Of a stretch of 64,000 bases of DNA, positions 7,319 to 49,580 are shown piece after piece; position 1 is the stretch's first letter, and every line of letters starts with the position of its first letter. Origin of the DNA: Candidatus Aminicenantes bacterium (GTDB lineage: Bacteria > Acidobacteriota > Aminicenantia > Aminicenantales > JAFGAV01); assembly GCA_963705895.1 (NCBI GenBank), contig OY970122.1, positions 1,634,774 to 1,698,773 of the forward strand, in the 5' to 3' direction. The position numbers were made by a program, and so were the translations under genes. The notes under the pieces were generated by a model. It had not been told where the DNA came from and searched no databases. It worked only from the letters and a program-made list of their open reading frames with translations.

Positions 7319-7433
7319 CGCGCGGCCCGTTGAAAGCGGGTCGCCGCATTCACCGTGACCTGACGGGACAGGCCTTCGTCCCTTGCCTCGAGCCAAAACT
7401 CATATGATAATAAGAACAAAAGGAGGGAAAGGC

Positions 7434-7916
7434 ATGGACATCACGACCGTCAAGATCGATAAGCCCGAGGACATGAACTTCATCCTGGGTCAATCGCACT
7501 TCATCAAGACCGTCGAGGACATCCACGAGGCCATCATCGCCACGGCGCCTCAGATGAAGTTCGGGCTGGCCTTCTGCGAATCGTCGGGGCCCGCGCTCGT
7601 CCGCCATTCGGGAAACGACCCGAAGCTCATCGAGCTGGCCGCGAGAAACGCGCTCGCGATCGGGGCCGGCCACTCGTTCATCATCTTCATGGAGAACGGC
7701 TACCCCATCAACATCCTGAACACGATCAAGGCCGTGCCCGAAGTCTGCCGGGTCTTTTGCGCGACGGCCAACCCGGTCGAGGTAGTGATCGCCGAGACCG
7801 AGGGAGGCCGGGGGATCCTGGGCGTCGTTGACGGGACGAAGACGAAGGGCGTCGAGACCGAGTCCGATATCAAGTGGCGCAAGGACTTTCTGCGCAAGAT
7901 CGGCTATAAGCTCTGA
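7434..7916 (+). CDS. Small conserved protein, possibly adenosine-specific kinase family
   Basis: 161 aa. Strong RBS AAAGGAGGG 6 nt upstream of ATG 7434. The family assignment is from memory and uncertain. Confidence 0.45.
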   Translation: MDITTVKIDKPEDMNFILGQSHFIKTVEDIHEAIIATAPQMKFGLAFCESSGPALVRHSGNDPKLIELAARNALAIGAGHSFIIFMENGYPINILNTIKAVPEVCRVFCATANPVEVVIAETEGGRGILGVVDGTKTKGVETESDIKWRKDFLRKIGYKL

Positions 7917-14362: not shown

Positions 14363-14770
14363 TCACCTATGCTTTGCTCTATATTGTTCAACGGGGCCGG
14401 AGGAGAACTTAATTACTTTCCTGATCAATAGGCGCTTCTCGTATTGATTTAAATGGCCAAAGGAGCCTCCTGATTCCATTTCTCCCTCGATCTGAACCCA
14501 TACTGCAAGGGTCACCTTGTTTAGCTTGATCATCTTTTTATTAATCGCCTCCTCATTTATGTCCGGTCCATAGTCGACCCAGCAAAACTCCTTCTTGTCC
14601 AAATCGCTTTTGAAGACCCTGCTCTCAAGTCCTGGCTGAATGAGGATAAATCCCTCATATTGCTGATTTCTCTGCTGACTGACCTGCCCCATCGCACTGC
14701 CTCCGACCCAAAACGTACCAACCGTTGCCAACAGGCATCCTGCAATCCTTAGTCTCGACCAATTTGTCAC
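14363..14770 (-). CDS. Small secreted hypothetical protein (GTG start) hidden inside the long kinase ORF
   Basis: RBS GAGGGAG 6 nt upstream of GTG at 14770. The product begins (M)TNWSRLRIAGCLLATVGTFWVGGSAMGQ, a signal peptide. The region is lower in GC than the kinase body and its codon usage differs. Confidence 0.45.
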   Translation of the reverse strand: MTNWSRLRIAGCLLATVGTFWVGGSAMGQVSQQRNQQYEGFILIQPGLESRVFKSDLDKKEFCWVDYGPDINEEAINKKMIKLNKVTLAVWVQIEGEMESGGSFGHLNQYEKRLLIRKVIKFSSGPVEQYRAKHR

Positions 14771-16312: not shown

Positions 16313-16422
16313 AGATCAAAGTTCCTAAAGACCGGCCAGTCTCCGCTTAGCATCCGCGACTTCGGGCAGGCCGGGGTCGGTGTCCTTAATAGGAGCGAGA
16401 AGTCCCGCGTGGTCTCTAATTC

Positions 16423-18936
16423 TCATTTCTCCAGGCCGACCCTGCGCAGCAGCGCAGCGAAACGCGGGTCGGAGCGTACCGGGTCAAAGGCGTGTGAAGG
16501 TTTCACGAACATCAAGAAAAATGGGTCGCGCTCGCGGACGGCTTTCTCCAGCCAGGCAAAAGTCCGGTCCTTCTCTCCAAGAGCCGAATAGATCCATGCG
16601 ATCCCCACCGGGGGCACATAATTCCCTTTGGAATACTCGATGAGATCGTCCAGTATCTTCTGCGCCTCTTCTCGTTTGCCCATAAACGCGTAGCAGCCCG
16701 CGAGAAAGGCACTTGGGCGCATGGGAATGGCTGTCAACTCCATGCTTCGATGATAATTCCTGACGGCTTCCTCATATTTGCCCATCGCTTCATAGGCCCA
16801 TCCCAGATACATGTAAGTCATCGCGTGAGTAGGGTCCACCTCGAGCGCCCTTTTCAGCTGCTCAACGGCCTCCCCATATCGACGCTCAAAATAAAGGAAA
16901 AGTCCCACATTGGCGCTGATCCGCGGCGACAGAGGGTCAAGGTCCCTGGCGATCTTGATCTCCCTCATAGCCTCCTCGAATCGGCCTTGCATGACCAAAT
17001 GGTACGCATAAAAGTGGCGGCCCGTCGCGTAGCTGGGATTGAGTTCAAGAGCTAGCTTTAATTCTTTCTCGGCACCGGCGAAATCCCATTCATAATCACC
17101 GATGACGCTCCCCAAACAGGCGTGAGCCTCAGCGAGGTTGCTGTCGATCTCCAATGCCCTCAATACTGCCGCCTTAGCTTGAGGAAACGCCTTTTCAGCT
17201 GGCCAGAAGCCGTTATTCCCGAGAATGTAATAGGCATCCCCTAGGCCTGCATAGGCCAGCGCATAATTCGGATCAACTTCAATCGCCTTCTTGTAGTATT
17301 CGACGGATCTTATAAGGTCTGCCTCCTCCCTCCTATTCCAAGCACTGAGGCCCTGCAAATAGAGTCTGTAAGCCTCGAGATTCTCGGTATAATTCTTGAC
17401 GAGAGGGGCGCCCTTCTCCCCAAGCAGCTTGATCTTTAGTTCAGTTACGATAGCTTTGGCGATGTCGTCTTGGATGGAGAACAAATCGGCCATTTTTCGG
17501 TTGTAGATCTCCGACCAGACTTGGCGGCCGTCTTGAACGTTGCTGATCCGTGCCGTGACCCGGAGATTATCCCCGGCGACCTGGACGCTGCCTTCAAGAA
17601 CGTTGTCCACGCCAAGCTTCCGGCCGATTTCATGGATGTCCTGGGTTTTCCCCTTGAAGAAAAAGGCCGATGTCCTGGCCGGAACCCAAAGTCCCTCGAT
17701 GTGGGTCAGGGCATCAATCAGCGTTTCCGACAGGCCATCGCAAAGGTATTCGTACTGCTTGGCCTGGCTCAAGTCCGCAAAGGGGAGAACGGCGATCGAA
17801 CGTCTCTGCGTCGGAGCGAGCGGAGCGTGTTTCTTCGGGATAAACAGCCAATATGCCACGGCGGCAAGGACGATGACGGCGACAATCAGGACCGGCGCCA
17901 TGAGCTTCTTTAGGCTGAATTTGACCGTAATCTCTCTCGAAGTTATCGGCTTCTGCTCAGGGATTACCCGCTCCGTTGTCGGGATGCCTTTTTCGATTTT
18001 CTCCAACTCGGAACGGACTTCGGCGGCGCTCTGGTATCGTTTGGTTTTGTCCTTTTCCAGGCACTTCAAAATAACGCCGCTGAGATCGTCTGGGATAAGA
18101 TGGTTCAGCTGCTTTGGATTTTTGGGGACTTCCCCCTTGTGCTTCATCGCGATGCTTAGGGCGGTCTCCCCTGTGAAGGGCACGTGGCTTGTCGCCATCT
18201 CATAAAGAATGACGCCCAGGGAATAGATATCAGAGAGATGGTCGACATCTTTGGCTTCGGCCTGCTCCGGGCTCATGTTCTCGGGCGTCCCGATCAACAC
18301 CCCCGCGCCCGTTAACCCCTTATCTTTGACCGACCGGGCAATCCCAAAATCCATGATCTTGGCATTCCCGTGCTTGTCGATCATGATGTTCTGGGGTTTC
18401 AGGTCGCGGTGGACGACGCCAAGACTGTGGGCTTCGGCCAGCCCATCACAGACCTGCTTCCCGACGCTCAGCAACATCCCTAGGCTCAGGCTCCCGGTCA
18501 TCTCGATCATGCTTTTCAGGTCTTCGCCATGGACGTATTCCATAGTGATGAAATGGGTCCCCTCCGCCTCGCCGATATCGAACATCTTGCAGACGTTCCG
18601 GTGTCCGATTCGGCGCGACAGCCGAATCTCATTGCTGAAACGTTCGATCGTCTCTTTATCGAAGGCGACCTCAGGCTTGATGAGCTTCAGGGCGACCTTC
18701 TCCTTGATCTTCGTGTCATAGACTTTGTATACCCGGCCCATGCCGCCATGTCCCAGCTCCTCGATGATTTGGTAGCGCCCAGCGAAGGTCGTGCCAGTGG
18801 TGAGTTCTTTGAGTGGCGTGTTTACAGTTTCGGTTCTGGAGTCAGGAATATCCCTGGAAGGAGGAAGGGGCGTGGCGCACCTGCCGCAATAATAGGTATC
18901 GGCAGGATTGTCAAAGTGGCACTTGGGGCATTCCAT
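16423..18936 (-). CDS. Ser/Thr protein kinase: zinc ribbon, kinase, TM, TolB-N-like periplasmic domain and TPR repeats
   Basis: CPKCHFDN...CGRC ribbon. Full Hanks motifs. A TM helix. A TolB/LpoB-like segment (IAVLPFADLS...). Multiple TPR-like repeats (AYAGLGDAYY, AEAHACLG...). Confidence 0.85.
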   Translation of the reverse strand: MECPKCHFDNPADTYYCGRCATPLPPSRDIPDSRTETVNTPLKELTTGTTFAGRYQIIEELGHGGMGRVYKVYDTKIKEKVALKLIKPEVAFDKETIERFSNEIRLSRRIGHRNVCKMFDIGEAEGTHFITMEYVHGEDLKSMIEMTGSLSLGMLLSVGKQVCDGLAEAHSLGVVHRDLKPQNIMIDKHGNAKIMDFGIARSVKDKGLTGAGVLIGTPENMSPEQAEAKDVDHLSDIYSLGVILYEMATSHVPFTGETALSIAMKHKGEVPKNPKQLNHLIPDDLSGVILKCLEKDKTKRYQSAAEVRSELEKIEKGIPTTERVIPEQKPITSREITVKFSLKKLMAPVLIVAVIVLAAVAYWLFIPKKHAPLAPTQRRSIAVLPFADLSQAKQYEYLCDGLSETLIDALTHIEGLWVPARTSAFFFKGKTQDIHEIGRKLGVDNVLEGSVQVAGDNLRVTARISNVQDGRQVWSEIYNRKMADLFSIQDDIAKAIVTELKIKLLGEKGAPLVKNYTENLEAYRLYLQGLSAWNRREEADLIRSVEYYKKAIEVDPNYALAYAGLGDAYYILGNNGFWPAEKAFPQAKAAVLRALEIDSNLAEAHACLGSVIGDYEWDFAGAEKELKLALELNPSYATGRHFYAYHLVMQGRFEEAMREIKIARDLDPLSPRISANVGLFLYFERRYGEAVEQLKRALEVDPTHAMTYMYLGWAYEAMGKYEEAVRNYHRSMELTAIPMRPSAFLAGCYAFMGKREEAQKILDDLIEYSKGNYVPPVGIAWIYSALGEKDRTFAWLEKAVRERDPFFLMFVKPSHAFDPVRSDPRFAALLRRVGLEK

Positions 18937-19249
18937 CTGCGAACCCCTTGAAGGTTTGATTAATTGATATCAACAAATAGGAAAAGAGTCAATCATCCGT
19001 TGTGCTCAATATAGAGGACTTACCTTTTTCCGCGACGTGGTGAATGGCTATTCCGTAAGCCTTTGAATAGGATCGGTCTCTTTGTCCCTCGAGAAAGACA
19101 GAATCGGAAACTGTGACCAAATTGTGACTATCCCAGGCATACTTCGGCATACTTTCGCATACCTACAGATACCTCGGACTAAATTGTAAACCCCTGATAA
19201 ATCAGGCTATTACTTCAGAATGTGGAGGTTAGGAAACTCGGTATCTTGC

Positions 19250-19288
19250 ATCCGGAGTCCGCCGCTCTATCCACTGAGCTACAGGCGC
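19250..19288 (-). pseudogene. tRNA-Arg-like 5' fragment (acceptor, D-arm and anticodon loop only)
   Basis: The reverse complement reads GCGCCTGTAGCTCAGTGGATAGAGCGGCGGACTCCGGA (loop CTCCGGA, anticodon CCG). No matching 3' half was found within 300 nt. Confidence 0.4.
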
Positions 19289-19388
19289 ATTCGTCCTCGG
19301 TCGGGAAGACGGGCCAGGCGGTAGGGATTCCGCTTTTCGGGGGCGACCCTAGGCCCGAATTTTATTTTCAAGCATAGGATCCAATTTA

Positions 19389-20600
19389 TTAATTTGCTCC
19401 ATGCTTTTTGAGCAACTCGGCCATTTCTTTGTGGCCGTTCATCAGAGCAATGCCCAGTGGACTTGTACCTCGTGGATCTACACCATCATAGCGCCTAGCG
19501 TTTATATCGGCTCCCATGCCGATTAGCAACTCGACCATCCCTATGCGGTTATTTGCAGCTGCGCCGTATAATGGAGTCGTGCCATACTTGTCTTTGTCGT
19601 TAATATTCGCGCCCCTGGCAGTTAATAGCGCAATCACATCTATGCTGCCGCCAGAGGCGGCCCAGTGCATGGCTGTATTGCCGGCAAAGCCCCTACAGTT
19701 AATATCTGCACCCTTCGCGATCAGCAGTTCGGCTATATCTTTTTGATTACGAAAGGCCGCTTCATGCAGAGGCGTCATCTCATTGTTATCCTTGGCGTTC
19801 ACATCTGCTCCCTTGCCGATAAGGAACTGCGCCACATCGTTGCGGCCTCCCACAATCGCCAAATGCAGCGGCGTGCACCTGGACTTATTTTTGGCGTCCA
19901 GTTCCGCCCCATTGGCAATTAGTAGCTCGGCACCTTTCCTGCTTCGACTGTGCAGAGGTGTCCAGTCATTGTTATCCTTGGCATTCACATCTGCACCCTT
20001 TCTTATTAGAAGCCCTACCACTTCATCGCTCGCAAAAACCGTCGCCCAATGCAGTGGCGTCCAACCCCAGTTATCCGCGCCGTTAATATCGGCTCCCCGG
20101 CGTATTAATACTTGGGCTATTTCCTTTGCCGCTTCTTGTGTGCTGTCGTTCGAGGGCTTAAAGCCTGACGTATTTCCTCGGGCCATTATTGACAAAACTT
20201 TGTCCCCGCTCCTATCATGAAGGAGTGTCCTCCCCTCCTTATCTTTGGCATTTAAATCCGCGCCCTTTTCAATCAATAACTCGACGATTTTTTCCTTGGC
20301 TTCCCTCGCTGCCTCGATGAGCGGCGTCCTGCCCCAACCGTCCTTTGCATTAATATCAGCCCCGGCGGCAATAAGTAGCTTTGCCATATCTAGATTGTTT
20401 TTCCGGGTGGCCAATTGCAGCGGCGTTTGCCCAACAGAATCTTTTGCGTTTACGTCCGCGCCTTTGGCGAGCAACATCTTGACCGCTTCTTCGTTCTCCT
20501 GGTGGATGGCCTCATGAAGTGGAGTAGGCCGAAGAATGTCTTCAAACGAAATCCTTTTGCGTCCTTTAAAGAAAGCCAGGAATCTTTTTAAGCCCATCAT
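19389..20600 (-). CDS. Ankyrin repeat protein (~11 ANK repeats)
   Basis: Repeated TPLHxAxxxxxxxxxxLLxxGADxNAKD units throughout. No signal peptide. Confidence 0.85.
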   Translation of the reverse strand: MMGLKRFLAFFKGRKRISFEDILRPTPLHEAIHQENEEAVKMLLAKGADVNAKDSVGQTPLQLATRKNNLDMAKLLIAAGADINAKDGWGRTPLIEAAREAKEKIVELLIEKGADLNAKDKEGRTLLHDRSGDKVLSIMARGNTSGFKPSNDSTQEAAKEIAQVLIRRGADINGADNWGWTPLHWATVFASDEVVGLLIRKGADVNAKDNNDWTPLHSRSRKGAELLIANGAELDAKNKSRCTPLHLAIVGGRNDVAQFLIGKGADVNAKDNNEMTPLHEAAFRNQKDIAELLIAKGADINCRGFAGNTAMHWAASGGSIDVIALLTARGANINDKDKYGTTPLYGAAANNRIGMVELLIGMGADINARRYDGVDPRGTSPLGIALMNGHKEMAELLKKHGAN

Positions 20601-20829
20601 ACTTTCCTAATCAAAGCGAACGTTTCATTCTTCGGATCTTTTATCATAATCAGTAATTTTATTTGATACTCCGATGACGGAGTTGTCAATGACCCGTGGA
20701 GGCCAATTCTAGTTTCTTGCCTAAACCTAGACCGAAATGAGGTGAAAATGAGCGAAGGTAGAGGATTGGTTAGAAATTGGGACCGAAGCGCATTTGCTTG
20801 GTCTATCGGGGTTTTCTTAGTAATTGAAT

Positions 20830-20877
20830 TGGTGGAGCTGACCAGGATCGAACTGGCGACCTCTTGAATGCCATTCA
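20830..20877 (-). repeat. Partial 3' copy of tRNA-Ala (48 nt, exact); att-like direct repeat adjacent to the integrase
   Basis: Identical to tRNA-Ala positions ~29-76. It diverges 5' of the anticodon loop. Confidence 0.85.
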
Positions 20878-20892
20878 CCTTGTTCATTTCGG

Positions 20893-21969
20893 TTAATTGT
20901 ATGCGGACGAGCGAGTTGCGGGAGTTTCCGCTTTCGGTTTATCGACCCGAATGACGGGATTTATGCCAGCATAGAGCGCCTCGAACTTCTCCATCCCGGC
21001 TTGCATATCCTCGAAGGTCTCATGGACATAGCGCATCGTCATCTCGGTCTTGGAGTGACCGAGGATCTTCTGGAGGGCCACGACGTCGTGCGTCGCCCGG
21101 TAGTACCAGGTGGCGAAGGTATGTCTCAGGTCATGGAAGCGCAGCCCTTTGATCTCCGCCCGCCGGCAAGCCGTATGGAATGAGGTCTTGACGTCCTTCA
21201 CGCCGAACACAAACGCATCCCGGCGAGGGATCGCCTTCAGGATCTCGACCACCACAGAATCCATCGGGACCTCTCTCGGTTTTTTACTCTTCGCCTCCGC
21301 GGCTAGGATGGTGATGAACCTTTCTCTAAACCTCACGTTCTCCCACCTCAGCCCCAGGACCTCGCCCTTCCTCATCCCGGTGTGCAGGGCGACAAGCAGG
21401 ATGGGTTTCAGGCTGGCGCTGGCGCACTCCACTAATCGTCCCCGCTCCCCGCTGGTAAGGATGCGCTCCGGTTTCGGTTCATCATCCTTCTCTATATCCG
21501 CGGTGGGGTCGTCGGTGATCTTCTTCCAGCGGAGAGCCTTCTGGCAGATCGCCCGCAAACAACTAAGCTCCCGGTTGACCGAGCATGGAGAGGCTTTTGT
21601 TGCTTTCCTAGCAGCCTGATACCTTTCCACAAACTCGGGCGTAATATCCTGAAGCGACTTCCCCTTGAGTGCCGGGACCAAGTGAACGCGGATCGAGTTC
21701 TCATAGCTCGCCATCGTGTTGGGGCGGATCTTTCCCTTCTCTGCGAGGAGTTTGAGGTAGTCCTCGGCGAAGTCCTCAAACAGGACCGGCTTCATGGCCG
21801 GCGCAGGGTTCTCAAAAATGCCGTGCTTTTCTTTTTTAAGATGTTCGAGCTTCTCATACATCGCCCGCTCTGTGTCCGCCCTGGAAAGCCCGGTGATGAC
21901 CCGATAGCGACGATAATCGAAGGTTAAGTCATAGAACCATTGGCCTTTATCGTTTTTGCTGACTTTCAT
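20893..21969 (-). CDS. Tyrosine recombinase / phage integrase
   Basis: C-terminal catalytic motifs (HDLRHTFAT...LGHSKTEMTMRYVH) and an N-terminal SAM-like domain. ATG at 21969 overlaps the stop of the upstream small ORF. Confidence 0.85.
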   Translation of the reverse strand: MKVSKNDKGQWFYDLTFDYRRYRVITGLSRADTERAMYEKLEHLKKEKHGIFENPAPAMKPVLFEDFAEDYLKLLAEKGKIRPNTMASYENSIRVHLVPALKGKSLQDITPEFVERYQAARKATKASPCSVNRELSCLRAICQKALRWKKITDDPTADIEKDDEPKPERILTSGERGRLVECASASLKPILLVALHTGMRKGEVLGLRWENVRFRERFITILAAEAKSKKPREVPMDSVVVEILKAIPRRDAFVFGVKDVKTSFHTACRRAEIKGLRFHDLRHTFATWYYRATHDVVALQKILGHSKTEMTMRYVHETFEDMQAGMEKFEALYAGINPVIRVDKPKAETPATRSSAYN

Positions 21970-22175
21970 TCTTCCCTCCAATCATCTGTGAAGAACCTCA
22001 GCTTATTCAATATCGAGCGCCATCTGCGCTGGATCTTTTTAAAATCTGCCTCTGATAAATTCTTGGGCGGTTCGGCCGGGATTTCACGAAGAGCATCTTC
22101 CAGTTTAAAATAATAGAGGAGCGCTCGACCCCGCATTATGAAGTTCTCCAGATTATCGTTCTTGCTGACCTTCAT
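21966..22175 (-). CDS. Small hypothetical protein, translationally coupled to int
   Basis: 69 aa. ATGA overlaps at both ends. The N-terminus MKVSKND duplicates the integrase N-terminus through a ~20-nt direct repeat. Confidence 0.35.
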   Translation of the reverse strand: MKVSKNDNLENFIMRGRALLYYFKLEDALREIPAEPPKNLSEADFKKIQRRWRSILNKLRFFTDDWREE

Positions 22176-22441
22176 CGTTTCCTCACCTCACCGCATTTGA
22201 ACCACGGCAGACTCGGCCCATCCTCTTCGCCCCCGCGCAAATAATCTTCGACAACCTCAATCGTGAACTCGGGAAGCAGTTGCCCCCAAATCCATTTAGA
22301 GAGGGTTTCAAGCTCAGCCCTGGACGGGGCATAGAGGATATGTTCGGTATCTCCCAGCGCCCTGAGCAGACGCATGGCCTCGCTTGCCGAGAACGTGCGC
22401 AGCCTGGTCATGTGTCGCCTCCTGCGTCCACTAGTAGCCAT
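22172..22441 (-). CDS. Small hypothetical protein
   Basis: 89 aa. Overlaps the downstream ORF start. Sits in the integrase module. Confidence 0.3.
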   Translation of the reverse strand: MATSGRRRRHMTRLRTFSASEAMRLLRALGDTEHILYAPSRAELETLSKWIWGQLLPEFTIEVVEDYLRGGEEDGPSLPWFKCGEVRKR

Positions 22442-22524
22442 AGGATACTAATATATTCTTTTATAGGCTGATGTCAAGGAAATTCTTTTCTTTTCTTGCT
22501 ATCCCTGGGCGATAGTGGTAGGCT

Positions 22525-22746
22525 TTGGATGTGGACGAATATCTGACCAAGAAGCAGCTAGAGGTCTATCTACATATCAGCCATGGGACCGTCCAGGCGT
22601 TGATGAAGCAAATCCCCTACGTGAAGCTCGGGAAACGGGTCTTATTTCGCCGGCAGGACGTGGACGCCTTCATGGAGGGGAAATTGGTCAGGAAACCCCT
22701 GCGCAAATCCCGGAGCAGGGCTAAACAGGCCCCTAGGATGCTCTAG
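22525..22746 (+). CDS. AlpA/excisionase-like HTH DNA-binding protein
   Basis: LTKKQLEVYLHISHGTVQALMKQIPYVKLGKRVLFRRQDVDAFM resembles a MerR/AlpA-type winged HTH. Transcribed divergently from the int side. Confidence 0.6.
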   Translation: MDVDEYLTKKQLEVYLHISHGTVQALMKQIPYVKLGKRVLFRRQDVDAFMEGKLVRKPLRKSRSRAKQAPRML

Positions 22747-22790
22747 GACGGGCTTTCAGGCGCAGCCGGGGCCGATGGGACGCGGGTTTT

Positions 22791-22979
22791 CTAGTCGGCC
22801 TTTCCCGAGGCCGTCGTTTTCCTTAGTCTGGCCCTGAGCCGTTTCCAGAAGTCGCGCTTCTGCACCTTGTCCATGCCGTCCGTCGCCATGTCAAGAAGGG
22901 CCGTGATGACGCCCTGAACCTCAAATTGATCGAAGCTAATGACGTGGTCCTTCTTCCCCAGGTTCTTGATGGTCGCCAT
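22791..22979 (-). CDS. Hypothetical small protein
   Basis: 62 aa. Tightly packed with the next gene. Confidence 0.3.
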   Translation of the reverse strand: MATIKNLGKKDHVISFDQFEVQGVITALLDMATDGMDKVQKRDFWKRLRARLRKTTASGKAD

Positions 22980-22981
22980 TT

Positions 22982-23383
22982 TTAGTCCTCGAAAGCCTTG
23001 TCCAGGGACGCAAGGTGCGACTTGACCCGCTCCAAAAATGCGCGTCCTTCATGGCTTAGAATGTGCCCTTGATACTTCAGGATAACCTCATTCCTCACAG
23101 GAAAATATTTCGCACCAAGATCCTTGATGGTTTTTTTATTCTTTTCGCCCCGGCCGAATTCATGCCAACAGGCTGCATTGTTCCCCGCCTTGTAGGTCAT
23201 CGCCTTCGCCGCGATTTGGGACAGGCCGTCCACCTCTGCCGTAAGGTCCGCAACCGCCTTGTCCTCGTTCGCCTTGAACCCGGCATTGATCTTCTCCTCC
23301 GGGGTGAGCTCGGGTTCTCCCGCCGCCTTCCTCGCACTTTCCGCGAGTTCCGCGTGGATCGCGTCTAGTTGTCGATTACTCAT
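22982..23383 (-). CDS. Hypothetical protein (element core)
   Basis: 133 aa. No recognised family. Confidence 0.4.
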   Translation of the reverse strand: MSNRQLDAIHAELAESARKAAGEPELTPEEKINAGFKANEDKAVADLTAEVDGLSQIAAKAMTYKAGNNAACWHEFGRGEKNKKTIKDLGAKYFPVRNEVILKYQGHILSHEGRAFLERVKSHLASLDKAFED

Positions 23384-23388
23384 TGTTT

Positions 23389-23551
23389 TCCTCCATAATT
23401 TTCTTTAGGTCGTCCGCTGAAAGTAGCGGCTCATGTTTCGCCTTTTCGTTAGCCGCAAGTCCGGCCTGGATCTTCTCTATCGTCTTTTCCTCGGGCTTGA
23501 GCTGCCGTTTATAGACCGGCTTGTCTTTCGGTTCTTCTGTCATTGTTTCCT
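23389..23551 (-). CDS. Inferred small ORF (~53 aa) not in the ORF track
   Basis: The reverse strand reads ATG ACA GAA GAA CCG AAA... through to a TGA that overlaps the next start at 23383. It fills an otherwise empty gap with ATGA coupling. Confidence 0.3.
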
Positions 23552-23926
23552 CACTTTTATCTGTCTCGCCTTCCGTTCTCGCCGTCCGATATAAGTTCCG
23601 TGGCCGTGGAATTCCTGCGCGTCTTTGACCTTCTTGGCCTGACGCGCCGCCTCTCGGTCGGGTGTGAATGGATTTCCCGGATTCCGATTGATTGCATCCT
23701 CCGCCCTGTGCATCGCTTCAACCTCCTCCCGACTCTTTGCCCTCGCAAGAATATGGCCCTTGACGATCGCCCGCGCGGCCTCATCCTCAATCGTGCAGCC
23801 TTTTAACAAAAGTTTCCCCGCGTCCTCAACGTTCGACGTCGAACCTTTGCCCTGATAAAAGTCCACGGCCCCAAAATAGCCCGTGAAGTCCGCCCTCCAA
23901 TGTTGGATGATAAAAATATTGCTCAT
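23540..23926 (-). CDS. Hypothetical protein
   Basis: 128 aa. Overlaps both neighbours. Confidence 0.4.
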   Translation of the reverse strand: MSNIFIIQHWRADFTGYFGAVDFYQGKGSTSNVEDAGKLLLKGCTIEDEAARAIVKGHILARAKSREEVEAMHRAEDAINRNPGNPFTPDREAARQAKKVKDAQEFHGHGTYIGRRERKARQIKVRKQ

Positions 23927-24195
23927 CGCTTCGGCACCCCCAAGGTTTCAAAATCGACGGGCGGGTTTCGATATCCGCACCCGAGATTCGACATAATGAG
24001 CGCGTCCTTTACGGCCCGGTCCAGCAATTCCGTGATGAACGTGAAGGCCGCCTGTTCGCCGAGAGTCTTGATGAGCTGCACCCGCTTCAGGTTCATCTCG
24101 TACTCACGGCCCTGAAAGTCTGTCAAGATCGCTTCGCCTCCCTCTAAGCTGACGCCCATCGTCGCCTGATACTTGGTCGGCTTTTCTTTTTCCAT
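23923..24195 (-). CDS. Hypothetical protein
   Basis: 90 aa. Lies upstream of terL. Confidence 0.4.
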   Translation of the reverse strand: MEKEKPTKYQATMGVSLEGGEAILTDFQGREYEMNLKRVQLIKTLGEQAAFTFITELLDRAVKDALIMSNLGCGYRNPPVDFETLGVPKR

Positions 24196-24304
24196 CTTTC
24201 CTCCTATCGAAGTTAGTGGGGGCGAGCTCAGGCCCCGCCCCCTTCTTCCTTAAAAGATTTCCAAGAGCCATAGGACGTCATGGAAACCGCCCCGGCCCTT
24301 TTTA

Positions 24305-25747
24305 TCAGTACCATTTGCCCGTCACCGCGTTAAACTTGCCTTGGTACGCTGTCCAAGTAACCCCCTGCGGCTTCCCGGCCAGGGTGAGGGCTCCGGCAAC
24401 CGCGTTGCCTACATCGTCATGTTTCCCGGAAAGGTGGACCACCATGTCATGCCCGCCGCTGCGGACCCGCCGGTCAAGATTGGCCAACTGACCGATGAGT
24501 GTCTTATTGTCGAGAAGTTCACACGAGCGCGACGTGATGATGGGGAGCAAATCGAGATAGAGTTCGTTCGCCGAGCGCTCGGAAAACCTAACCCGAATCC
24601 CCCGAAGTTCAAATGCGTTTTTTATCCATTCCCGACTGAACCTGTCGGACGTGACCTCCAGGCAACCATAGCCCATGAGGATGGCAGCGTATTCGGCAAC
24701 CACCTGGGCAGGATCAAAACCCGGTTTCCGTTCCTTCACCAAGTCCAGGATCTTGAACCGCCCCTCCGTTTCTGCATGAGCGATAGCCAAGGTAAAACTA
24801 TCCTGCCCGCCCATGCTCGGGTCGATAAAGGCCGTGTACTTCAAGCCGCGAAGGGCAGGCAACTCGAAGCGGTCAGGCACCACACACGCCTGGAGCGCCT
24901 CGAAGGACAGGAATGATTCGATATCGGCCCGCCATTGGCTGAGCCATTCGGCGCTCGCCTGCTGAGGGTCATCCACCAGCGCCTCCTTGATGATCTCCGC
25001 GTCAAGCGTCGGGTTCATGGTCATGCTCGGCGCAAGCCACACAAACGCCCGGCCCTCATGCCCGAAGTTCTTTTTGTAGCTTTGCCATAAAATTCCCCTC
25101 CGCGCATAGGCCGTCGAAATACTCAAAAGCAGGCTCTCGGGAATTGTCGCCAACGCCGGCCTGATAGCCCCCAGGACTTCCTCATCCGGGTTCGCACTGT
25201 CCTCTGCTCGCCAGAAAGAAACTTCTTCCAAAATCGCCCCGATCAACGTATAGCCCCGGACACTCCTGAAGCTCGCCGTCTTAACCGATATCGTAATGCC
25301 GTTCTTCAGGTCAATGCTCTCGACGGTCTCCTTGTCGATCATCTTTCGCAAAATGGGCGAACCGCGCAATAACCCGCCGATATAGCGACGAATTATTTTC
25401 GCCTGGTCCTTATCGCAGGCCAGGATGAAGAAGTAACCTCGTTCACCGGGACTCAGGAAGGGAGTCCAGTCCTTAAAACAGCTTAGATAAACAGCGATGA
25501 CCGAGCTGATATAGCTCTTGCCCGATCTACGGCCAGCTATCGCCGAACACTCCCGGATCTTCTCTTTGGGGGGCATGGCAAGGTCAGTACAGTCCCGGAG
25601 CAACTTCAAGTCATCGGAGTCCTGAATCTCCAGCCCAAAGAGCGCTTTCAAAAACACCATCCAGGGACGCCATGTCGAAAGGTCCTTGAACGCGCCGCCC
25701 AAAAGGTTCTTGTCCTCTATGGCCTGGATGATATTGAGATCGTTCAT
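24305..25747 (-). CDS. Terminase large subunit-like protein
   Basis: Walker A AGRRSGKSY, Walker B-like LIGAILEEVSFW and a C-terminal RNaseH-like nuclease pattern (FIDPSMGGQDSFTLAIAH). Confidence 0.7.
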   Translation of the reverse strand: MNDLNIIQAIEDKNLLGGAFKDLSTWRPWMVFLKALFGLEIQDSDDLKLLRDCTDLAMPPKEKIRECSAIAGRRSGKSYISSVIAVYLSCFKDWTPFLSPGERGYFFILACDKDQAKIIRRYIGGLLRGSPILRKMIDKETVESIDLKNGITISVKTASFRSVRGYTLIGAILEEVSFWRAEDSANPDEEVLGAIRPALATIPESLLLSISTAYARRGILWQSYKKNFGHEGRAFVWLAPSMTMNPTLDAEIIKEALVDDPQQASAEWLSQWRADIESFLSFEALQACVVPDRFELPALRGLKYTAFIDPSMGGQDSFTLAIAHAETEGRFKILDLVKERKPGFDPAQVVAEYAAILMGYGCLEVTSDRFSREWIKNAFELRGIRVRFSERSANELYLDLLPIITSRSCELLDNKTLIGQLANLDRRVRSGGHDMVVHLSGKHDDVGNAVAGALTLAGKPQGVTWTAYQGKFNAVTGKWY

Positions 25748-26262
25748 TCCTTGCCGTCCTTATCGCTCACATTTGCCCCAGGTTGAACGATCTCCGAGCC
25801 GCCCTTGTCCGAGGACGCGGGTTTTGCCTTGCCGTACTTCGTCTCAACATACCGGCCAAGGTCAAGTGTCTCATCCGCCCGCTTCCTATCTATGCCTAGA
25901 GTCTGAAGGTCACGACGCAGGGCCTCGGCATAAGTGACGTATGATCGGGCAAGGACCGGGCTTAATTCATGGCCTCGAAATACGCCTTCCTCTCTGACCT
26001 GTTCCTCTATGCAGCGAAGGACTGAGAGTTTCCCGATGAGGGAATTGATGATGATTCTCTGTGCAGTCGTGAGGTCCGCCTCTGTCGGCCCCAGGTCCCG
26101 GATGAGGCCGTCCCGGACCTCAGTTAAATAAGCCCTGAGATACGTCCGGCGCTTTGGCAATTCGCCTGCCCTAATCATGAGCGAATAGGCACCATGTCGG
26201 GGCGGCCGGCCTATCCTCACTTTCGGCTTTTGCAGATTGTCTTTAATCATCGTTATTTTCAC
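25744..26262 (-). CDS. Putative terminase small subunit
   Basis: 172-aa basic protein immediately upstream of terL and overlapping it. Assignment rests on position and composition. Confidence 0.4.
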   Translation of the reverse strand: MKITMIKDNLQKPKVRIGRPPRHGAYSLMIRAGELPKRRTYLRAYLTEVRDGLIRDLGPTEADLTTAQRIIINSLIGKLSVLRCIEEQVREEGVFRGHELSPVLARSYVTYAEALRRDLQTLGIDRKRADETLDLGRYVETKYGKAKPASSDKGGSEIVQPGANVSDKDGKE

Positions 26263-26605
26263 TTTAAGCCATATTTCAAATAGGTTTCAAAATGGCAGCG
26301 GACCCGGCAACGACCACTTCCACCGCTTCCCGATGTTTCCCGATTTCCTCTATTGACAAGACAATATGACTTGCCGAGAGCATGACAGGCAATCAGAAGG
26401 CCGGGCAGCTCTCTCAGGCTTTCTATAAGCACAGAACGGGCAAAAGGGTGCCTGTCTCCGGCGATGTTTTTCGGCGATGGGCTGGATTGCCCTAGGCTCT
26501 CTAGGCTGTACTCATTGGTATTCTTTGGACTTTTTCCAATGAATACACACAACCCCCATATTTCCCAAAGAATACTAAAGAATACATAAAAAGAGTCTAA
26601 GGGTT
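26263..26605. promoter_or_regulatory. Putative replication origin of the element (iterons plus inverted repeat)
   Basis: Lower-GC stretch directly downstream of the primase-helicase gene. Direct repeats CTAGGCT x2 at 26492-26507 and AAAGAATAC x2. A 12-nt inverted repeat GGTATTCTTTGG / CCAAAGAATACC spans 26515-26575. Confidence 0.35.
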
Positions 26606-27889
26606 TCATGGCTTTCCCTTGGGCAGATACCAGAACCAGCGGCCTTGATACTTGGGCTCCTTATCGGCTATAAGGCCGAGCTTGACCCGTGCCCTTTTGA
26701 TCGTCCATTCGGCGAGACCTTCCTCCCTTGCCTCGGCGATAACGTCGTCGCTGAAGATAACGCCTCCCTCTTTGACTACTTTGAGCTTGGGCTTGATGAA
26801 TTCGACGGCTCGGGTGACCTCGATATTTTCGAGCGGGGGGCAGATCAGGACGTTGGGATCCACGTCGATCAGGTTTGAATATTCGATTTTGGCCGTTTCG
26901 ATGTCGTCTCCGTTTGGGGCTTTGAACGTGATGGGCTGAATGATAAAGGATAGGCTTTTAGTGCCGCCCGTGATATTGCTTTTTTGTGGGACAAGCAGGC
27001 GGACATTCCGGGGATCCTCGGGCCGTCTTATGACGGACCAAGACATTTTAACGCCGGCCATGAATTGAGCGCTGCCCGAGGTTCGGTTGATTGCCTTCGG
27101 GTCTTGGGCCTTGGCGAAGTGCATCACGGCAACTACTGCAACCCCGACCCGATAGGCAAGGGTGCTGAGTAGGTCCATCGCTCGCCGTACCTGGTTTTGC
27201 TGATTCGTATTAATTCGCTCCGGGAGAAAAGAGGCTATGGGGTCAATGACGATGAGTTTGAGTTCTGGGCAGGTCCGAGCGTCATTTTCAAGTTTCGGAA
27301 GGTGCTGCGTAATGTCGAAAATATCGAACTCGCCCTCTTTGTTATAAACGCCTTCGATGAGGTCCACCTTGCTAAGATCGGCGCCGGCCGCGATAAGCCG
27401 AGGGACCAGAATCATCTCCGGGACACCTTCGCTGCTGACATAGAACACCCGGCCTTGGACAACTTCGCCGGGTTTGTCATAGAGGGGGAACGCAACGCCT
27501 TTCGAGACGCGGGCGGTTGCGTCCAGGGTGACTAAGGTTTTCCCCTCCCCGGCGTCGCCCGTGATTGCCGTTGCCATATAAGACGGGATCACGCCGCGCC
27601 ATAGATAGGGAATTTTTCTGATTCCGACGTTCTTCGTATTTCGCCGGGCGATGATGACCTCGTCGTCAGCCTTTTTTGCGGCCGGCTTATAAAACCTTAT
27701 TGCTTCAGGGCCGGGTTTTGTATCTCTTGGAAGCGGAGTCGAGCCCGGATTATTCTTTTGATGAACGAGTTCGGCTGCATCGTCGAGTTCTTGGCGCTCT
27801 ATTTCATTTTCGGATTCATGTTTTATCATCGCCGTTCCCTGTATAAGAAGCGCAAGGGCCGGCGGCCAGGGAACCAACCAACCGGACAC
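26606..27889 (-). CDS. AAA_25/RecA-like ATPase, primase-helicase/RepA-like replication protein
   Basis: Walker A GDAGEGKT in a RecA-like context (YVSSEGVPEM...). The architecture is typical of satellite/PICI pri-rep proteins. Confidence 0.6.
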   Translation of the reverse strand: MSGWLVPWPPALALLIQGTAMIKHESENEIERQELDDAAELVHQKNNPGSTPLPRDTKPGPEAIRFYKPAAKKADDEVIIARRNTKNVGIRKIPYLWRGVIPSYMATAITGDAGEGKTLVTLDATARVSKGVAFPLYDKPGEVVQGRVFYVSSEGVPEMILVPRLIAAGADLSKVDLIEGVYNKEGEFDIFDITQHLPKLENDARTCPELKLIVIDPIASFLPERINTNQQNQVRRAMDLLSTLAYRVGVAVVAVMHFAKAQDPKAINRTSGSAQFMAGVKMSWSVIRRPEDPRNVRLLVPQKSNITGGTKSLSFIIQPITFKAPNGDDIETAKIEYSNLIDVDPNVLICPPLENIEVTRAVEFIKPKLKVVKEGGVIFSDDVIAEAREEGLAEWTIKRARVKLGLIADKEPKYQGRWFWYLPKGKP

Positions 27890-27910
27890 CTTGCGCCTTG
27901 ATTTTCTTCG

Positions 27911-28219
27911 TCACCGCTTCCCGCTGCGTCCGCGCTTGGGCTTCGCGGGTTCCAGGTGTTTCAACTCTGGGATTGGCGCTGTGCCTTCGAGGAGCGCGTC
28001 GAGTTTCAGTTTATCGACCCGGCAACCAATTCCCTTGATCTTGGTGCCCGGCACGCGGCCACATCTCAAGGACCGATACAGAGATTTTTCCGATAGATGG
28101 TAAAGCTGACATGTTTCCCGAATTGTCAACCACCGGCGCTTTTCCAGGTTTTCCAGATTTTTTAATGCCATTTTATACCTCACGCGGAAAAATATGCGCT
28201 TCTTCTCTTCCCTTGTCAA
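27911..28219 (-). CDS. HTH transcriptional regulator (AlpA/excisionase-like)
   Basis: LTIRETCQLYHLSEKSLYRSLRCGRVPGTKIKG. Confidence 0.5.
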   Translation of the reverse strand: MTREEKKRIFFRVRYKMALKNLENLEKRRWLTIRETCQLYHLSEKSLYRSLRCGRVPGTKIKGIGCRVDKLKLDALLEGTAPIPELKHLEPAKPKRGRSGKR

Positions 28220-28306
28220 GGCTAAGTAATTGATTCTAAAAGAATTAATGAGACATTAAGGGTAGTGCTTAATGTCTCTTTTTGGGGGCTTTTCGGGGGC
28301 CGGATA

Positions 28307-29056
28307 TCAGCGGCCGAGTGCTTTGATGCTGGCCGCGATGCGCTCGCGGGCTTTCGTGATTGTCTTTAGCGGGACTTTCTCGCCGGTGTAATGCTCCCAA
28401 GCGCTTGCAATTCTACGATCATTCAGCTTGCCGTATCGCTTCTCCTTGTGGAGATCGTAAAAGCACAGGTCCCGCTCGAAGGTCCGCTTCTCGCGCCCGG
28501 TGAGGGCAAAGCCGAAGGTCTTTTTCTGTTCATACTTGAGCGCAAGCCAAATGTATTTTAGTTCCTGAAGCGCAGTCCAGGGAAAAATCTTCACGAAGAT
28601 TTCGCCGCCGGGATAGGGTTTGTTTTTGCGGTCAAACATAGTGCTTTGGAGATCATTGAGCACAGGATTCACACAGCGCAAGAAATCGCCGCTTTTGAGT
28701 TTGCCGGTTCCGATCCCCATAGCGTAGCCATAGGCTTTTAGCTGCGGACCTTGCCTCTTATTCTTCTTGGCTGTCTCTATTACCCTATCATCCCTGTTGA
28801 CGTAGATCCAGGGCAGAGATGAAGCGTGATCGGCGAGTGCTTCTAAATCCCCGTTCCATTGTTCCGCGATTCCCCATTGTCGGCAGAATTCGAGCCAGCG
28901 GTCATCCGTGCTAGCGAACCTTATAACCTGATTCAAGTGCCTCTTGAATTTAGGATTCCTTTTTAAAAGCTCGCCTCGTATCTCGCCCGACCTATATTTT
29001 CTTTTCCCTTCCTCGATCCGCTCTTTAATGTTTTTGAGAATGTCGTGCGTTAACAT
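28307..29056 (-). CDS. Hypothetical cargo protein (249 aa) in the att-proximal accessory slot
   Basis: Clean ORF with no recognisable domain. It lies between the HTH/rep module and the tRNA. Confidence 0.5.
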   Translation of the reverse strand: MLTHDILKNIKERIEEGKRKYRSGEIRGELLKRNPKFKRHLNQVIRFASTDDRWLEFCRQWGIAEQWNGDLEALADHASSLPWIYVNRDDRVIETAKKNKRQGPQLKAYGYAMGIGTGKLKSGDFLRCVNPVLNDLQSTMFDRKNKPYPGGEIFVKIFPWTALQELKYIWLALKYEQKKTFGFALTGREKRTFERDLCFYDLHKEKRYGKLNDRRIASAWEHYTGEKVPLKTITKARERIAASIKALGR

Positions 29057-29296
29057 ATCTGCCTCCCTTCGCAGTCCTAAAAGAAAGGCCGGGGCAAGCG
29101 GCTAGGGAGGACCGCCTTTCGCTGATCAAGCTAGCCCCGGATTTAATTTGACGCTCGCATGCCGGCGTTGTCAATGACGGGATTTTTGCCATAAATTGGA
29201 AATTGAGCGGAAAACAGGCGAAATTGATAGAGTGTTGATAGGCAGGGGTCGAGGTCGTTATTACTCGATACGACGTGGTTTTCTTAGCAAAGTGGT

Positions 29297-29372
<76 letters not shown>

Positions 29373-47105: not shown

Positions 47106-49580
<2,475 letters not shown>

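Follow-up and report, generated by a model that had tools for sequence, protein, structure and literature searches.

A phage-satellite-like element with its own large terminase in Candidatus Aminicenantes

An 8,467-bp integrated element from a Candidatus Aminicenantes bacterium is probably an intact, helper-dependent phage satellite that encodes its own large terminase (TerL) together with a TerS-like protein. The element resides within the 64-kb stretch of DNA that was analysed (the window), where it is flanked by perfect 49-nt repeats of the 3' half of a tRNA-Ala(GGC) gene, and all of its ORFs are intact (Table 1). Related elements form a large family, apparently without a name, whose defining trait is a private terminase consisting of the TerS-like protein and TerL. 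The family most likely spreads by stealing the capsids of helper phages.

Table 1. Features of the integrated element and its attachment sites (window coordinates)
Feature	Coordinates	Strand	Evidence
attR, exact copy of tRNA-Ala 3' half	20830..20877	-	direct repeat; alignment
Tyrosine integrase (int)	20893..21981	-	Pfam Phage_integrase 1.5e-30; PHROG_1 2.7e-67
Two small ORFs, 89 and 69 aa, upstream of int	21966..22441	-	ORF calls
Excisionase-family HTH, 73 aa	22525..22746	+	TIGR01764 33.3 bits (cutoff 28.8); HTH_17 2.4e-9
Five small coupled genes, 90, 128, 55, 133 and 62 aa	22791..24195	-	ORFs; variable post-TerL slot
Large terminase (ATPase and RNase H-like nuclease), divergent HK97-like lineage	24305..25747	-	profiles, AF2 model, conserved residues
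o172, small helical protein, 172 aa (168 aa as annotated), candidate small terminase	25744..26262	-	position, weak fold match
Iteron cluster, five GTATTCWTTGG copies (3 on gene strand, 2 inverted)	26508..26585	.	repeat search
AAA_25 (RepA/DnaB-like helicase-type) replication protein	26606..27889	-	Pfam AAA_25 3.3e-24
HTH_17 (excisionase/MerR-like) regulator	27911..28219	-	Pfam HTH_17 9.9e-6, 26.2 bits (cutoff 27); PHROG_66 5e-6
Accessory ('cargo') gene, 249 aa	28307..29056	-	ORF; function unassigned
int-alpA RNA motif, Rfam RF02996, between tRNA and cargo gene	29075..29141	-	40.7 bits vs gathering score 35.8
tRNA-Ala(GGC), intact; attL	29297..29372	-	ARAGORN; Rfam tRNA 61.4 bits; direct repeat; alignment

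The recombination core corresponds to the 3' 48-49 nt of tRNA-Ala (29296/7-29344, tRNA positions ~29-76). An exact copy is present at 20829/30-20877, with a start-to-start spacing of 8467. The element has both the tyrosine integrase and the direct repeat of a tRNA segment, including the anticodon loop or 3' end, by which tRNA-integrating elements are recognized, and profile matches bear out the integrase call of the original prediction. The prediction had regarded the placement of int beside the partial repeat as unusual, but the same layout is found in all 10 relatives that have 3'-half tRNA repeats; four other relatives use a 5'-half mode. The int-alpA RNA motif was absent from the 12 related elements searched, so it is not a core part of the family.

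The element's TerL is a genuine member of the large terminases, for which ATPase, nuclease and profile homology were all found, as had been proposed from its Walker and nuclease motifs. It matches the profiles PHROG_9 (1.6e-20) and PHROG_2 (8.5e-20). Because its score against Pfam TerL_ATPase (20.6 bits) is under the cutoff of 23.7, and because it has no NCBIfam match, we assign it to a divergent lineage. The top 41 PDB matches found by Foldseek for an AF2 model of the protein (pLDDT 87.5) are all large terminases, and both domains are covered. The best of these is HK97 TerL (6Z6D, 8.1e-20), at 16% identity, and identities to solved terminases range from 9 to 21% in the Foldseek alignments. 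Matches include the ATPase domains of T4 gp17 and P74-26, as well as the nuclease domains of G20c and P74-26 (TM 0.69-0.78, normalised to target), and a profile comparison with the 5TGE nuclease domain gave 0.0086. Across 36 homologs there is no variation in the Walker A motif GRRSGKS (72-78) or EE174-175 of the N-terminal ASCE ATPase, for which Walker A, Walker B and a catalytic Glu are expected, nor in the acidic residues D309, D368 and D445 of the C-terminal RNase H-like nuclease. Among 50,697 deposited phages, the closest TerL is only 27.5% identical; two large IMG/VR phage contigs carry relatives with 41-43% identity.

The o172 gene is joined to the TerL gene through an ATGA stop/start overlap, so that the two are translationally coupled, and of 103 loci, 62 have it directly ahead of TerL. 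A small terminase had been predicted here. Gene position and weak fold matches, which would be consistent with a TerS of the P27/HK97 type, hint at this function, but searches at the sequence level gave no support for it.

No capsid, portal, tail or lysis genes were found when the ORFs of the element were searched by using Pfam and PHROG, and no HNH partner is present. The five small genes that follow TerL, among which no capsid or tail gene had been recognized originally, likewise yielded no match in Pfam, PHROG, PADLOC or PDB profiles. A few tblastn queries of the 64-kb window revealed no homologs of capsid, portal, protease, tape-measure or second TerL proteins, and identified no helper phage.

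Related elements offer clues to the role of this variable slot. Separate ORFs corresponding to o128, o55 and o133 are retained in the same order in a close relative (L023), and amino-acid identity between the small ORFs of the two elements is about 50%, with many codons that differ only synonymously. In other relatives, the slot may be empty or may hold a scaffold-like gene that weakly matches Phage_scaffold (7e-6), a gene for a prohead protease (PHROG_80, 2e-15) or one for an HK97 capsid protein (Pfam Phage_capsid, 8.4e-36; PHROG_10, 3e-37). HK97-type major capsid proteins (MCPs) are carried by L005, L006, L015, L084 and L101, and L007 also carries a portal gene (1.5e-40). In several relatives, int immediately follows TerL, with no morphogenesis gene. 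The five small genes lie at the position where relatives hold scaffold-like, protease or capsid genes, and they are the best candidates for functions in capsid-size redirection or helper interference.

Alternatively, the unrecognized small ORFs could encode the capsid, portal and tail of a minimal autonomous virus. The five post-TerL genes and three others lack detectable homology, and circular 8-kb contigs appear in IMG/VR, where membership is a prediction and not a particle measurement. However, the largest protein of the slot has 133 aa, and the five together amount to 468 aa, which falls short of what an HK97-fold shell, portal and tail require. Moreover, members of the family differ in what the slot contains, and in several it contains nothing. 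The MCP-bearing elements L005, L006 and L015 still lack portal and tail genes, and MCP-bearing relatives that are complete elements of 8.2-8.5 kb have no connectors either. To our knowledge, TerL motors work on portals only. We consider an autonomous virus highly improbable.

The family has the recurrent order [tRNA]-HTH-rep-o172-TerL-variable-HTH-int-[tRNA half], which is seen in L001-L003, L103, L105 and dozens of metagenome loci. The window element has this layout as well, with iterons between rep and o172, and it fits the size of about 8-11 kb that most members have between their tRNA att repeats. In total, 15 copies have both att sites on one contig. These range from 8,071 to 15,192 bp (median 9,579), all but one are 8-11.5 kb, and they occupy tRNA genes for Arg, His, Leu and Ala. 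Circular copies are represented by two contigs, of 8,231 and 8,465 bp, whose ends overlap. Searches at E<=1e-30 yielded 2,082 cluster representatives of TerL relatives (50% identity clusters). Sources of relatives include Ca. Aminicenantes and Omnitrophota MAGs and sediment metagenomes; in the last, close copies number in the hundreds, and several can occur per genome. For example, a second paralog (P0076, 54%) is present in the same 3.31-Mb genome, and one 3.18-Mb genome has two paralogs. In a neighbor-joining tree, the window TerL groups with that of L023 (72% identity) inside a crown group.

These comparative data bear on the possibility that the element is a degraded prophage, left after a tailed prophage lost its structural genes by deletion. 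The presence of TerL without portal, capsid or tail genes would be expected of such a remnant, and TerL relatives do occur beside MCP and portal genes (L007) and in phage contigs of 60-84 kb (L008, L009). However, perfect att repeats and intact ORFs argue against decay, as does purifying selection on TerL and the small ORFs. Many different tRNAs harbour this compact arrangement of genes, in att-delimited copies that with one exception are 8-11.5 kb; there are also circular copies and multiple paralogs per genome, and independent decay would not yield one shared architecture. The 15 copies in which a single contig spans both att sites cannot be assembly fragments of larger prophages. The sequence comparison largely refutes the degraded-prophage reading, which is very improbable, and the family is best viewed as a conserved element type, not debris.

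The original prediction of a RepA/primase-helicase-like protein is correct with respect to the AAA_25 domain, but the protein lacks a primase domain, and PHROG primase/helicase families align only by their helicase part. The homolog in L003 is fused to Prim-Pol and PriCT_1. All five matches to GTATTCWTTGG in the window are located inside 78 nt, whereas 1.47 matches are expected across the whole 64 kb. Elements carrying AAA_25 proteins frequently have their own repeated 9-mers in the gap between rep and o172 (12 of 17, comprising 11 of 16 relatives and the window element). The iteron cluster is probably the origin of replication, and a 116-aa ORF that overlaps it (26259-26609) is probably spurious. 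SaPIs and other PICIs carry pri/rep-ori modules, which resemble this arrangement of a rep gene followed by element-specific iterons.

Two HTH proteins were found, as expected from the original prediction. The 73-aa protein, described there as an AlpA-like excisionase, does belong to an excisionase family, but not to the Pfam AlpA family. Its gene is divergent from the int operon and is in the same reversed position in L001, L024, L025 and L074. The predicted HTH regulator matches HTH_17 just under the cutoff, is the first gene of a long operon, and has an HTH gene at its position in L001, L003, L103 and L105. Among promoter-like sites of the element, the best (22477-22450, 11/12 matches) precedes the 89- and 69-aa ORFs upstream of int, for which no homologs were found. 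No sensor or derepression gene was recognized among the element's genes. The 249-aa cargo gene has no match in Pfam, PHROG, PADLOC or NCBIfam and no homolog among 102 related loci. It appears to be its own transcription unit, and a hairpin with an 11-bp stem (28250-28278) is located downstream of it.

An autonomous rep-iteron module and the lack of structural genes might also be expected of a helper-independent integrative element, similar to an integrative plasmid or IME, in which the TerL-like ATPase-nuclease and its partner have a non-packaging role. Such roles could include processing of replication intermediates, loading of vesicles, or interference with phages by a decoy terminase. This explanation would fit the relatives in which int directly follows TerL, a circular element without an integrase (L006), and a TerL that scores under the Pfam cutoff and has no NCBIfam model; known satellites, according to the literature, often double as defence islands. 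However, conservation of the two TerL domains and of their catalytic residues is exactly that of packaging enzymes, and the TerL genes of relatives adjoin MCP, protease, scaffold-like and portal genes. In addition, a Pfam search of the window element turned up no relaxase, T4SS or partition gene, and PADLOC found no defence model. A helper-independent element is unlikely.

The original prediction held that the element resembles a PICI or phage satellite. All of its gene calls that were open to testing proved right, and the satellite-like reading remains the best supported. Comparative data strengthen it: the family is conserved and att-delimited, has circular copies, and in some members fills the slot with capsid, protease or scaffold-like genes. 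Membership among PICIs or cfPICIs does not follow. PICIs are defined by int, a regulator (alpA/merR/stl) and a primase-replicase, together with terS or a gene for capsid morphogenesis, and by the lack of any other structural or packaging genes of phages, notably terL (PMC10085698). The window element has int, HTH regulators and rep, but it also has a full TerL and was not classed as a PICI. cfPICIs are defined by 9-11 core genes, including terL, capsid, portal, head-tail adaptor and connectors, and steal tails alone (Alqurainy et al. 2023; de Sousa et al. 2023, PMC10085698). This class was likewise rejected, in that no capsid or connector match was obtained among the element's ORFs with Pfam and PHROG. 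An ordinary PICI or cfPICI could be mis-scored by current profiles as a consequence of its distant host lineage, and the shared modular order (int, regulators, rep-ori, packaging genes), similar size, tRNA integration and HK97-like packaging genes, as in cfPICIs, are consistent with this idea. Given the full TerL, which PICIs lack by definition, and the missing capsid and connector genes, which cfPICIs require, we regard it as quite unlikely. Resemblance to a PICI is therefore a functional analogy and not family membership.

Several known systems share features with the family. Like cfPICIs, the window element is an integrative satellite with int, regulators, a replication module, its own HK97-like terL and a candidate terS, and the five MCP-bearing relatives extend the likeness. 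However, MCP-bearing relatives that are complete 8.2-8.5-kb elements lack portal and connectors, and cfPICI hosts are Proteobacteria and Firmicutes, in contrast to the sources of this family. Classical PICIs (SaPIs and the EcCICFT073 type) have in common a size of about 8-15 kb, int-xis, divergent regulators, rep with an iteron origin, a variable accessory region, and redirection of packaging by a satellite-encoded terminase component. That component is only TerS (or Rpp/Ppi), which uses the TerL of the helper, whereas a full TerL is the most conserved gene of the present family. PICI-like tycheposons and marine VEIMEs are also small, tRNA-integrating and mainly metagenomic, with a tyrosine recombinase, a primase/helicase and a partial packaging set. 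The papers describe terS or MCP in them along with 'motor-like ATPases,' but no TerS-TerL pair (Hackl et al.; Eppley et al., PMC9618062), and by description are set apart by habitat and recombinase lineage.

P4-like satellites share tRNA integration, a size of about 10 kb, self-replication, and reliance on a helper to supply every virion protein. P4 itself is packaged by the terminase of its P2-like helper, which acts at a cos site common to both, and it alters the capsid through Sid and Psu. Searches with PHROG and Pfam found no homologs of P4 psu, delta, sid or alpha primase in the element, and P4-like membership was rejected on this basis. HK97-type phage packaging modules have in common the TerL fold and the Phage_capsid (PF05065) and Phage_portal (PF04860) genes of relatives, and the o172 model would fit their type of TerS; the window element differs by having no HNH partner, portal or capsid gene.

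If the element is a helper-dependent satellite, its excision would presumably follow infection by, or induction of, a helper phage. The element would then replicate from its own origin by using primase and polymerase of the host or helper. Its terminase would recognize and cut element DNA and pump it into helper procapsids via the helper portal, and transfer would be completed by helper tails and helper lysis. However, 8.5 kb is too little DNA to fill a normal capsid, unless concatemers are packaged or capsid size is altered. TerL sequences are 50-77% identical between elements while rep and post-TerL modules are swapped, which fits a motor constrained by an external partner. Because the searched literature holds no satellite that has TerS and TerL but no capsid genes, the mechanism is without experimental precedent.

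We tentatively suggest that these elements might constitute a distinct, widespread class of satellite, in which a complete private motor (TerS and TerL) on an 8-11-kb integrative replicon docks on the helper portal. The principle of the class would be replacement of the helper's terminase, as opposed to borrowing of TerL (PICI, PLE) or possession of an own head (cfPICI). Members may represent a graded series, from the motor only, to the motor with a scaffold-like protein or protease, to the motor with an own HK97 shell but no portal (L005, L006, L015). If so, the portal alone, or portal-primed procapsids, would be stolen in uncultivated anaerobic phyla of sediments.

We know of phage satellites almost only from Proteobacteria, Firmicutes and marine picoplankton, and every satellite in the searched literature uses the large terminase of its helper or encodes a whole capsid. 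If our interpretation is correct, a motor-only family adds a new mode of phage parasitism and extends satellites to poorly studied anaerobic phyla. Phage counts based on TerL, as well as virus-prediction tools, would miscount such elements as viruses, and thousands of 'hypothetical proteins' and small IMG/VR 'viruses' would be reclassified as belonging to satellites instead of phages. The post-TerL slot would then be a natural library of candidate capsid-remodelling and anti-helper proteins.

The element is bounded by a tRNA repeat. An exact copy of the 3' part of the intact tRNA-Ala(GGC) gene, from the anticodon stem to the CCA end, accompanies that gene as a 48-49-nt repeat, and the two copies are 8,467 nt apart. 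The genes between them are densely packed, and all except one lie on the minus strand. Profile searches agree with four assignments made in the original prediction, namely the integrase, the excisionase (an excisionase-family HTH protein), the AAA_25 protein, and an HTH regulator. The 249-aa gene adjoining the tRNA has no match in Pfam, PHROGs, PADLOC, or NCBIfam, and two further small ORFs precede int. Promoter and terminator predictions within the element are hints at most, because scans gave no enrichment relative to shuffled sequence. The window also contains two copies of the int-alpA RNA motif, which score 40.7 and 48.4 bits (gathering score, 35.8). This RNA was considered as a component of the family and rejected, as it is absent from 12 relatives at the gathering score.

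Features of the element and its surroundings (positions in the window)
Feature	Position	Strand	Basis or remark
tRNA-Ala(GGC), intact	29297-29372	minus	ARAGORN and Rfam
Copy of tRNA-Ala(GGC) 3' part	20829/30-20877		exact repeat
Tyrosine integrase	20893-21981	minus	Pfam 1.5e-30; PHROG_1 2.7e-67
Excisionase-family HTH, 73 aa	22525-22746	plus	HTH_17 2.4e-9; NCBIfam TIGR01764 33.3 bits, above cutoff
Five small genes (90, 128, 55, 133, 62 aa)	22791-24195	minus	unknown ORFs
Large terminase	24305-25747	minus	PHROG and AlphaFold/PDB matches
Candidate small terminase, 172 aa	25744-26262		context
116-aa ORF	26259-26609		probably non-coding origin DNA
GTATTCWTTGG cluster	26508-26585		five matches
AAA_25 protein	26606-27889	minus	profile search, 3.3e-24
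Second HTH_17 protein	27911-28219	minus	profile search
int-alpA RNA, inside element, just upstream of 249-aa cargo gene	29075-29141	minus	Rfam RF02996
int-alpA RNA, outside element, just past ankyrin gene	19295-19359	minus	Rfam RF02996
Orphan 5' half of tRNA-Arg(CCG)-like gene	19245-19285 (approximate)	minus	directly after second int-alpA copy
Ankyrin-repeat protein, 403 aa	19389-20600	minus	just outside attR
Secreted repeat proteins, ~385 aa	35338-37902 and 52312-60411		at least seven paralogs
Transposase-like gene	53714-54646		amid the secreted repeat proteins
Three long Ser/Thr-kinase-like proteins	14363-18936 and 47106-49580	minus	N-terminal zinc ribbon
tRNA-Arg(CCT)	63053-63129	minus	at window edge

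The large terminase (TerL) scores 20.6 bits against Pfam TerL_ATPase, which is under the cutoff. No NCBIfam model matches it, and its homologs are annotated as "hypothetical protein" in public sources. The protein matches PHROG_9 (1.6e-20) and PHROG_2 (8.5e-20), both of which are described as terminase large subunits. An AlphaFold model made with 36 homologs in the alignment has a pLDDT of 87.5, and its best 41 matches in the PDB are large terminases without exception. Matches to the model include HK97 (8.1e-20), T4 gp17, Sf6 gp2, and D6E, as well as the isolated ATPase and nuclease domains of P74-26 and G20c. Residues that are invariant across the same alignment comprise the Walker A sequence GRRSGKS, EE 174-175, D309, D368, and D445. 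The original prediction had made its case depend on terminase homology being found by profile search. Such homology is therefore present, and the TerL call is sustained by the PHROG matches, the predicted structure, and the conserved Walker A and acidic residues. The nearest TerL among 50,697 deposited phage records shares 27.5% identity over half of the protein; judged by sequence, this TerL lineage is far from cultured phages.

The 172-aa ORF is located directly upstream of TerL, and its stop codon overlaps the TerL start codon (ATGA). Of 103 loci, 62 have a homolog in this position upstream of TerL. Searches with this protein gave no sequence-level match to anything, not even when a 49-member profile was used, and its predicted model is helical and of moderate confidence (pLDDT 65). 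Thus, the small terminase put forward originally fits by position and finds no counterpart in sequence; from its context, the protein is a likely but putative TerS.

A probable origin of replication is a feature that the original prediction had missed. The motif GTATTCWTTGG has five matches in the window, three direct and two inverted, and all fall inside 78 nt immediately after the AAA_25 stop codon (1.47 matches are expected by chance per whole 64 kb). This cluster is contained within the 116-aa ORF, for which a homolog was found nowhere, and the ORF is therefore read as probably non-coding origin DNA. Repeated 9-mers that differ from element to element occur in the gap between the replication gene (rep) and the TerS-like gene in 12 of 17 AAA_25-bearing elements (11 of 16 relatives, plus the window element). 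SaPI and PICI replication modules consist of a rep gene and then element-specific iterons, and the element resembles them in that its rep is followed by iterons of its own.

Searches with TerL yield hundreds of proteins with 50-77% identity, nearly all of them metagenomic, and an exhaustive search with a threshold of E<=1e-30 yielded 2,082 representatives of 50%-identity clusters. Sediment samples of the Ga0315xxx, Ga0172xxx, and Ga0180xxx series abound in such elements. A single-protein scan of a genome collection returned one locus, L004. Named homologs belong to Aminicenantes and Omnitrophota, and one relative was found in a Ca. Aminicenantes MAG. A second TerL paralog is on the same 3.31-Mb contig as the window element, and one 3.18-Mb contig carries two paralogs. 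The gene order of the family begins with a tRNA and optional cargo, and continues with an HTH gene, a replication gene, a TerS-like gene, and TerL. These are followed by a variable slot, an HTH gene (reversed or forward), small genes, an integrase, and a tRNA fragment. This order is shared by four loci on long contigs (L001, L003, L103 from a 4.28-Mb genome, and L105) and 80 metagenome loci. Because the element is one of many similar elements and no one-off deletion product, it is highly improbable that it is a decayed prophage.

Where a single contig spans both att sites, att-to-att lengths are 8,071, 8,184, 8,385, 8,467 (window element), 8,726, 9,036, 9,479, 9,579, 9,689, 10,442, 10,728, 10,826, 11,166, 11,489, and 15,192 bp. 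The att-delimited elements target tRNAs for Arg, His, Leu, and Ala, and integration takes two forms. In the window element and 10 relatives, the repeat is the 3' half of the tRNA, and the integrase gene is far from the intact tRNA. In four other relatives, the repeat is the 5' half and the integrase gene is beside the intact tRNA. Thus, the placement of int next to the partial repeat, which had been called unusual, is the norm for the family. Terminal overlaps of 114 and 125 nt show that two IMG/VR contigs (8,231 and 8,465 bp) assemble as circles, although IMG/VR membership and circular assembly are not proof of encapsidation.

Several relatives have additional features. Many, but not the window element, encode a PC4-domain (PF02229) protein of ~80 aa between the TerS-like gene and TerL (for example, L103 9768-10004 and L001 9756-10004). 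The 8,231-bp circular contig, L006, has no integrase, and therefore episomal, non-integrating family members may exist. It encodes a 357-aa protein (6484-7557) in which a ParB/Srx-like "DGHHR" motif was seen by eye, with no Pfam match at E<=0.01. At L103 14552-17014, the element integrase abuts, back-to-back, another integrase gene and HTH genes that lie on the other strand, an arrangement that points to elements inserted in tandem or side by side at one hotspot.

In the window element, five small genes fill the variable slot that follows TerL. None has a match in Pfam, PHROGs, PADLOC, or NCBIfam, in keeping with the earlier statement that no capsid or tail gene was recognised among them. Profile searches of the PDB with the families of the 133- and 128-aa proteins found nothing, a comparison of the 133-aa family with the scaffold-like c12 family gave an hhalign probability of 0.1, and a word-indexed search for homologs of the 133-aa protein found two proteins only. 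In the closest relative, L023 (TerL 72% identical), the 128-, 55-, and 133-aa proteins are encoded by separate ORFs in the same order, with ~50% amino acid identity and with synonymous-only codons as numerous as identical ones. On this sequence evidence, the three are genuine genes rather than pieces of a disrupted capsid gene. The possibility that the five ORFs are remnants of a broken major capsid protein (MCP) or portal gene was rejected, as they have no similarity to the family MCP, protease, or portal; the pseudogene idea is also contradicted by the separate ORFs in L023.

In some relatives, the slot encodes a 114-aa protein weakly similar to scaffolds (Pfam Phage_scaffold 7e-6, under cutoff), a coiled-coil protein of 290 aa that matches nothing, a prohead protease (PHROG_80 2e-15), a tape-measure-like protein, or an HK97-type MCP (Phage_capsid 8.4e-36, PHROG_10 3e-37). 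In others it is empty, and int immediately follows TerL. Portal and tail genes are missing from the complete capsid-bearing elements, namely L005 (8,385 bp att-to-att) and two circular ones, L006 and L015; a portal was seen only in a fragment, L007 (1.5e-40). Remoter TerL relatives (41-43% identity) reside in 60- and 84-kb phage contigs near DNA polymerase, clamp-loader, and SbcCD-like genes. In a neighbor-joining tree based on BLOSUM distances, which is a rough method, most capsid-bearing or phage-borne TerLs branch at the base, and the crown group that includes the window element consists mainly of compact elements with scattered capsid and protease genes.

The surroundings of the element have features of their own. 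The orphan tRNA-Arg(CCG)-like half retains the acceptor stem, D-arm, and anticodon stem and loop before unrelated sequence begins. It resembles an att site left over from integration in the 5'-half mode, as in relatives L030, L036, L037, and L099, and suggests that an earlier element once resided there. The ankyrin-repeat gene lies in a stretch of low GC content (0.45-0.52) and may be cargo left behind by a former element; its match to the PADLOC candidate defense model PDC-M72A (8.2e-63) may be driven by the ankyrin repeats. Similarity between the element ends extends past the 49-nt att core into non-tRNA sequence (20600-20829 versus 29057-29296; for example, a 38-nt block at 82%, 20656-20693 versus 29141-29178). 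This similarity reflects either capture by the element of a copy of the sequence downstream of the tRNA or a chromosomal remnant of the left end of a former tandem element. The secreted proteins have a signal peptide (MSKKRFGWVFLF...) and repeats of the form ...LLHSFAGG..DG..P.GSLILKGSTLYGMT..., and two of the three kinase-like proteins, which were all assigned solely from reading translations, have C-terminal TPR repeats. The tRNA-Arg(CCT), a second tRNA in the window, corresponds to the att site of relatives L005 and L058.

The element is equipped to integrate and excise, to drive its own replication, and to cut DNA and pump it into a procapsid. It has no genes for a procapsid, portal, tail, or cell lysis, and a minimal autonomous virus is a very improbable description of it. 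The parts present, the parts missing, and the many similar elements are all accounted for if the element is a helper-dependent phage satellite with a terminase of its own, and we consider this the probable explanation. By analogy, the element would excise and then be packaged into helper procapsids through the helper portal. No helper phage was found in the 64-kb window by tblastn with family MCP, portal, protease, tape-measure, and TerL queries. It is unlikely, but deserves some weight, that the element is integrative and independent of phages, with a TerL-like enzyme that has another role or acts mainly in anti-phage interference.

Published definitions set the element apart from named satellites. 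PICIs are defined by int, a regulator, a primase-replicase, and terS or a capsid-morphogenesis gene, and by the lack of terL, whereas cfPICIs are distinguished by terL plus capsid, head-tail adaptor, and connector genes, with 9-11 core components (SatelliteFinder paper, PMC10085698). Possession of terL excludes the element from the PICIs, and the lack of any capsid or connector gene excludes it from the cfPICIs. That it is a divergent member of the PICI/cfPICI family is quite unlikely. PICI-like tycheposons carry terS or MCP (Hackl et al.), and marine VEIMEs carry terS and unspecified motor-like ATPases (Eppley et al., PMC9618062). P4 markers are absent from the element in Pfam and PHROG searches of its ORFs. 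The full-text literature searched, the coverage of which is incomplete such that a prior description is possible, holds no description of a satellite with only TerS and TerL, and nothing on "MJ0330," as the precomputed Pfam family PF27249 is called.

The resemblance to a PICI that was originally proposed therefore holds for function and not for definition: the element would work like a PICI-type satellite, yet lies outside the named families. TerL is the best-conserved gene, and rep and post-TerL modules are freely exchanged among elements. Such a pattern is consistent with a motor that has to continue docking onto a foreign portal.
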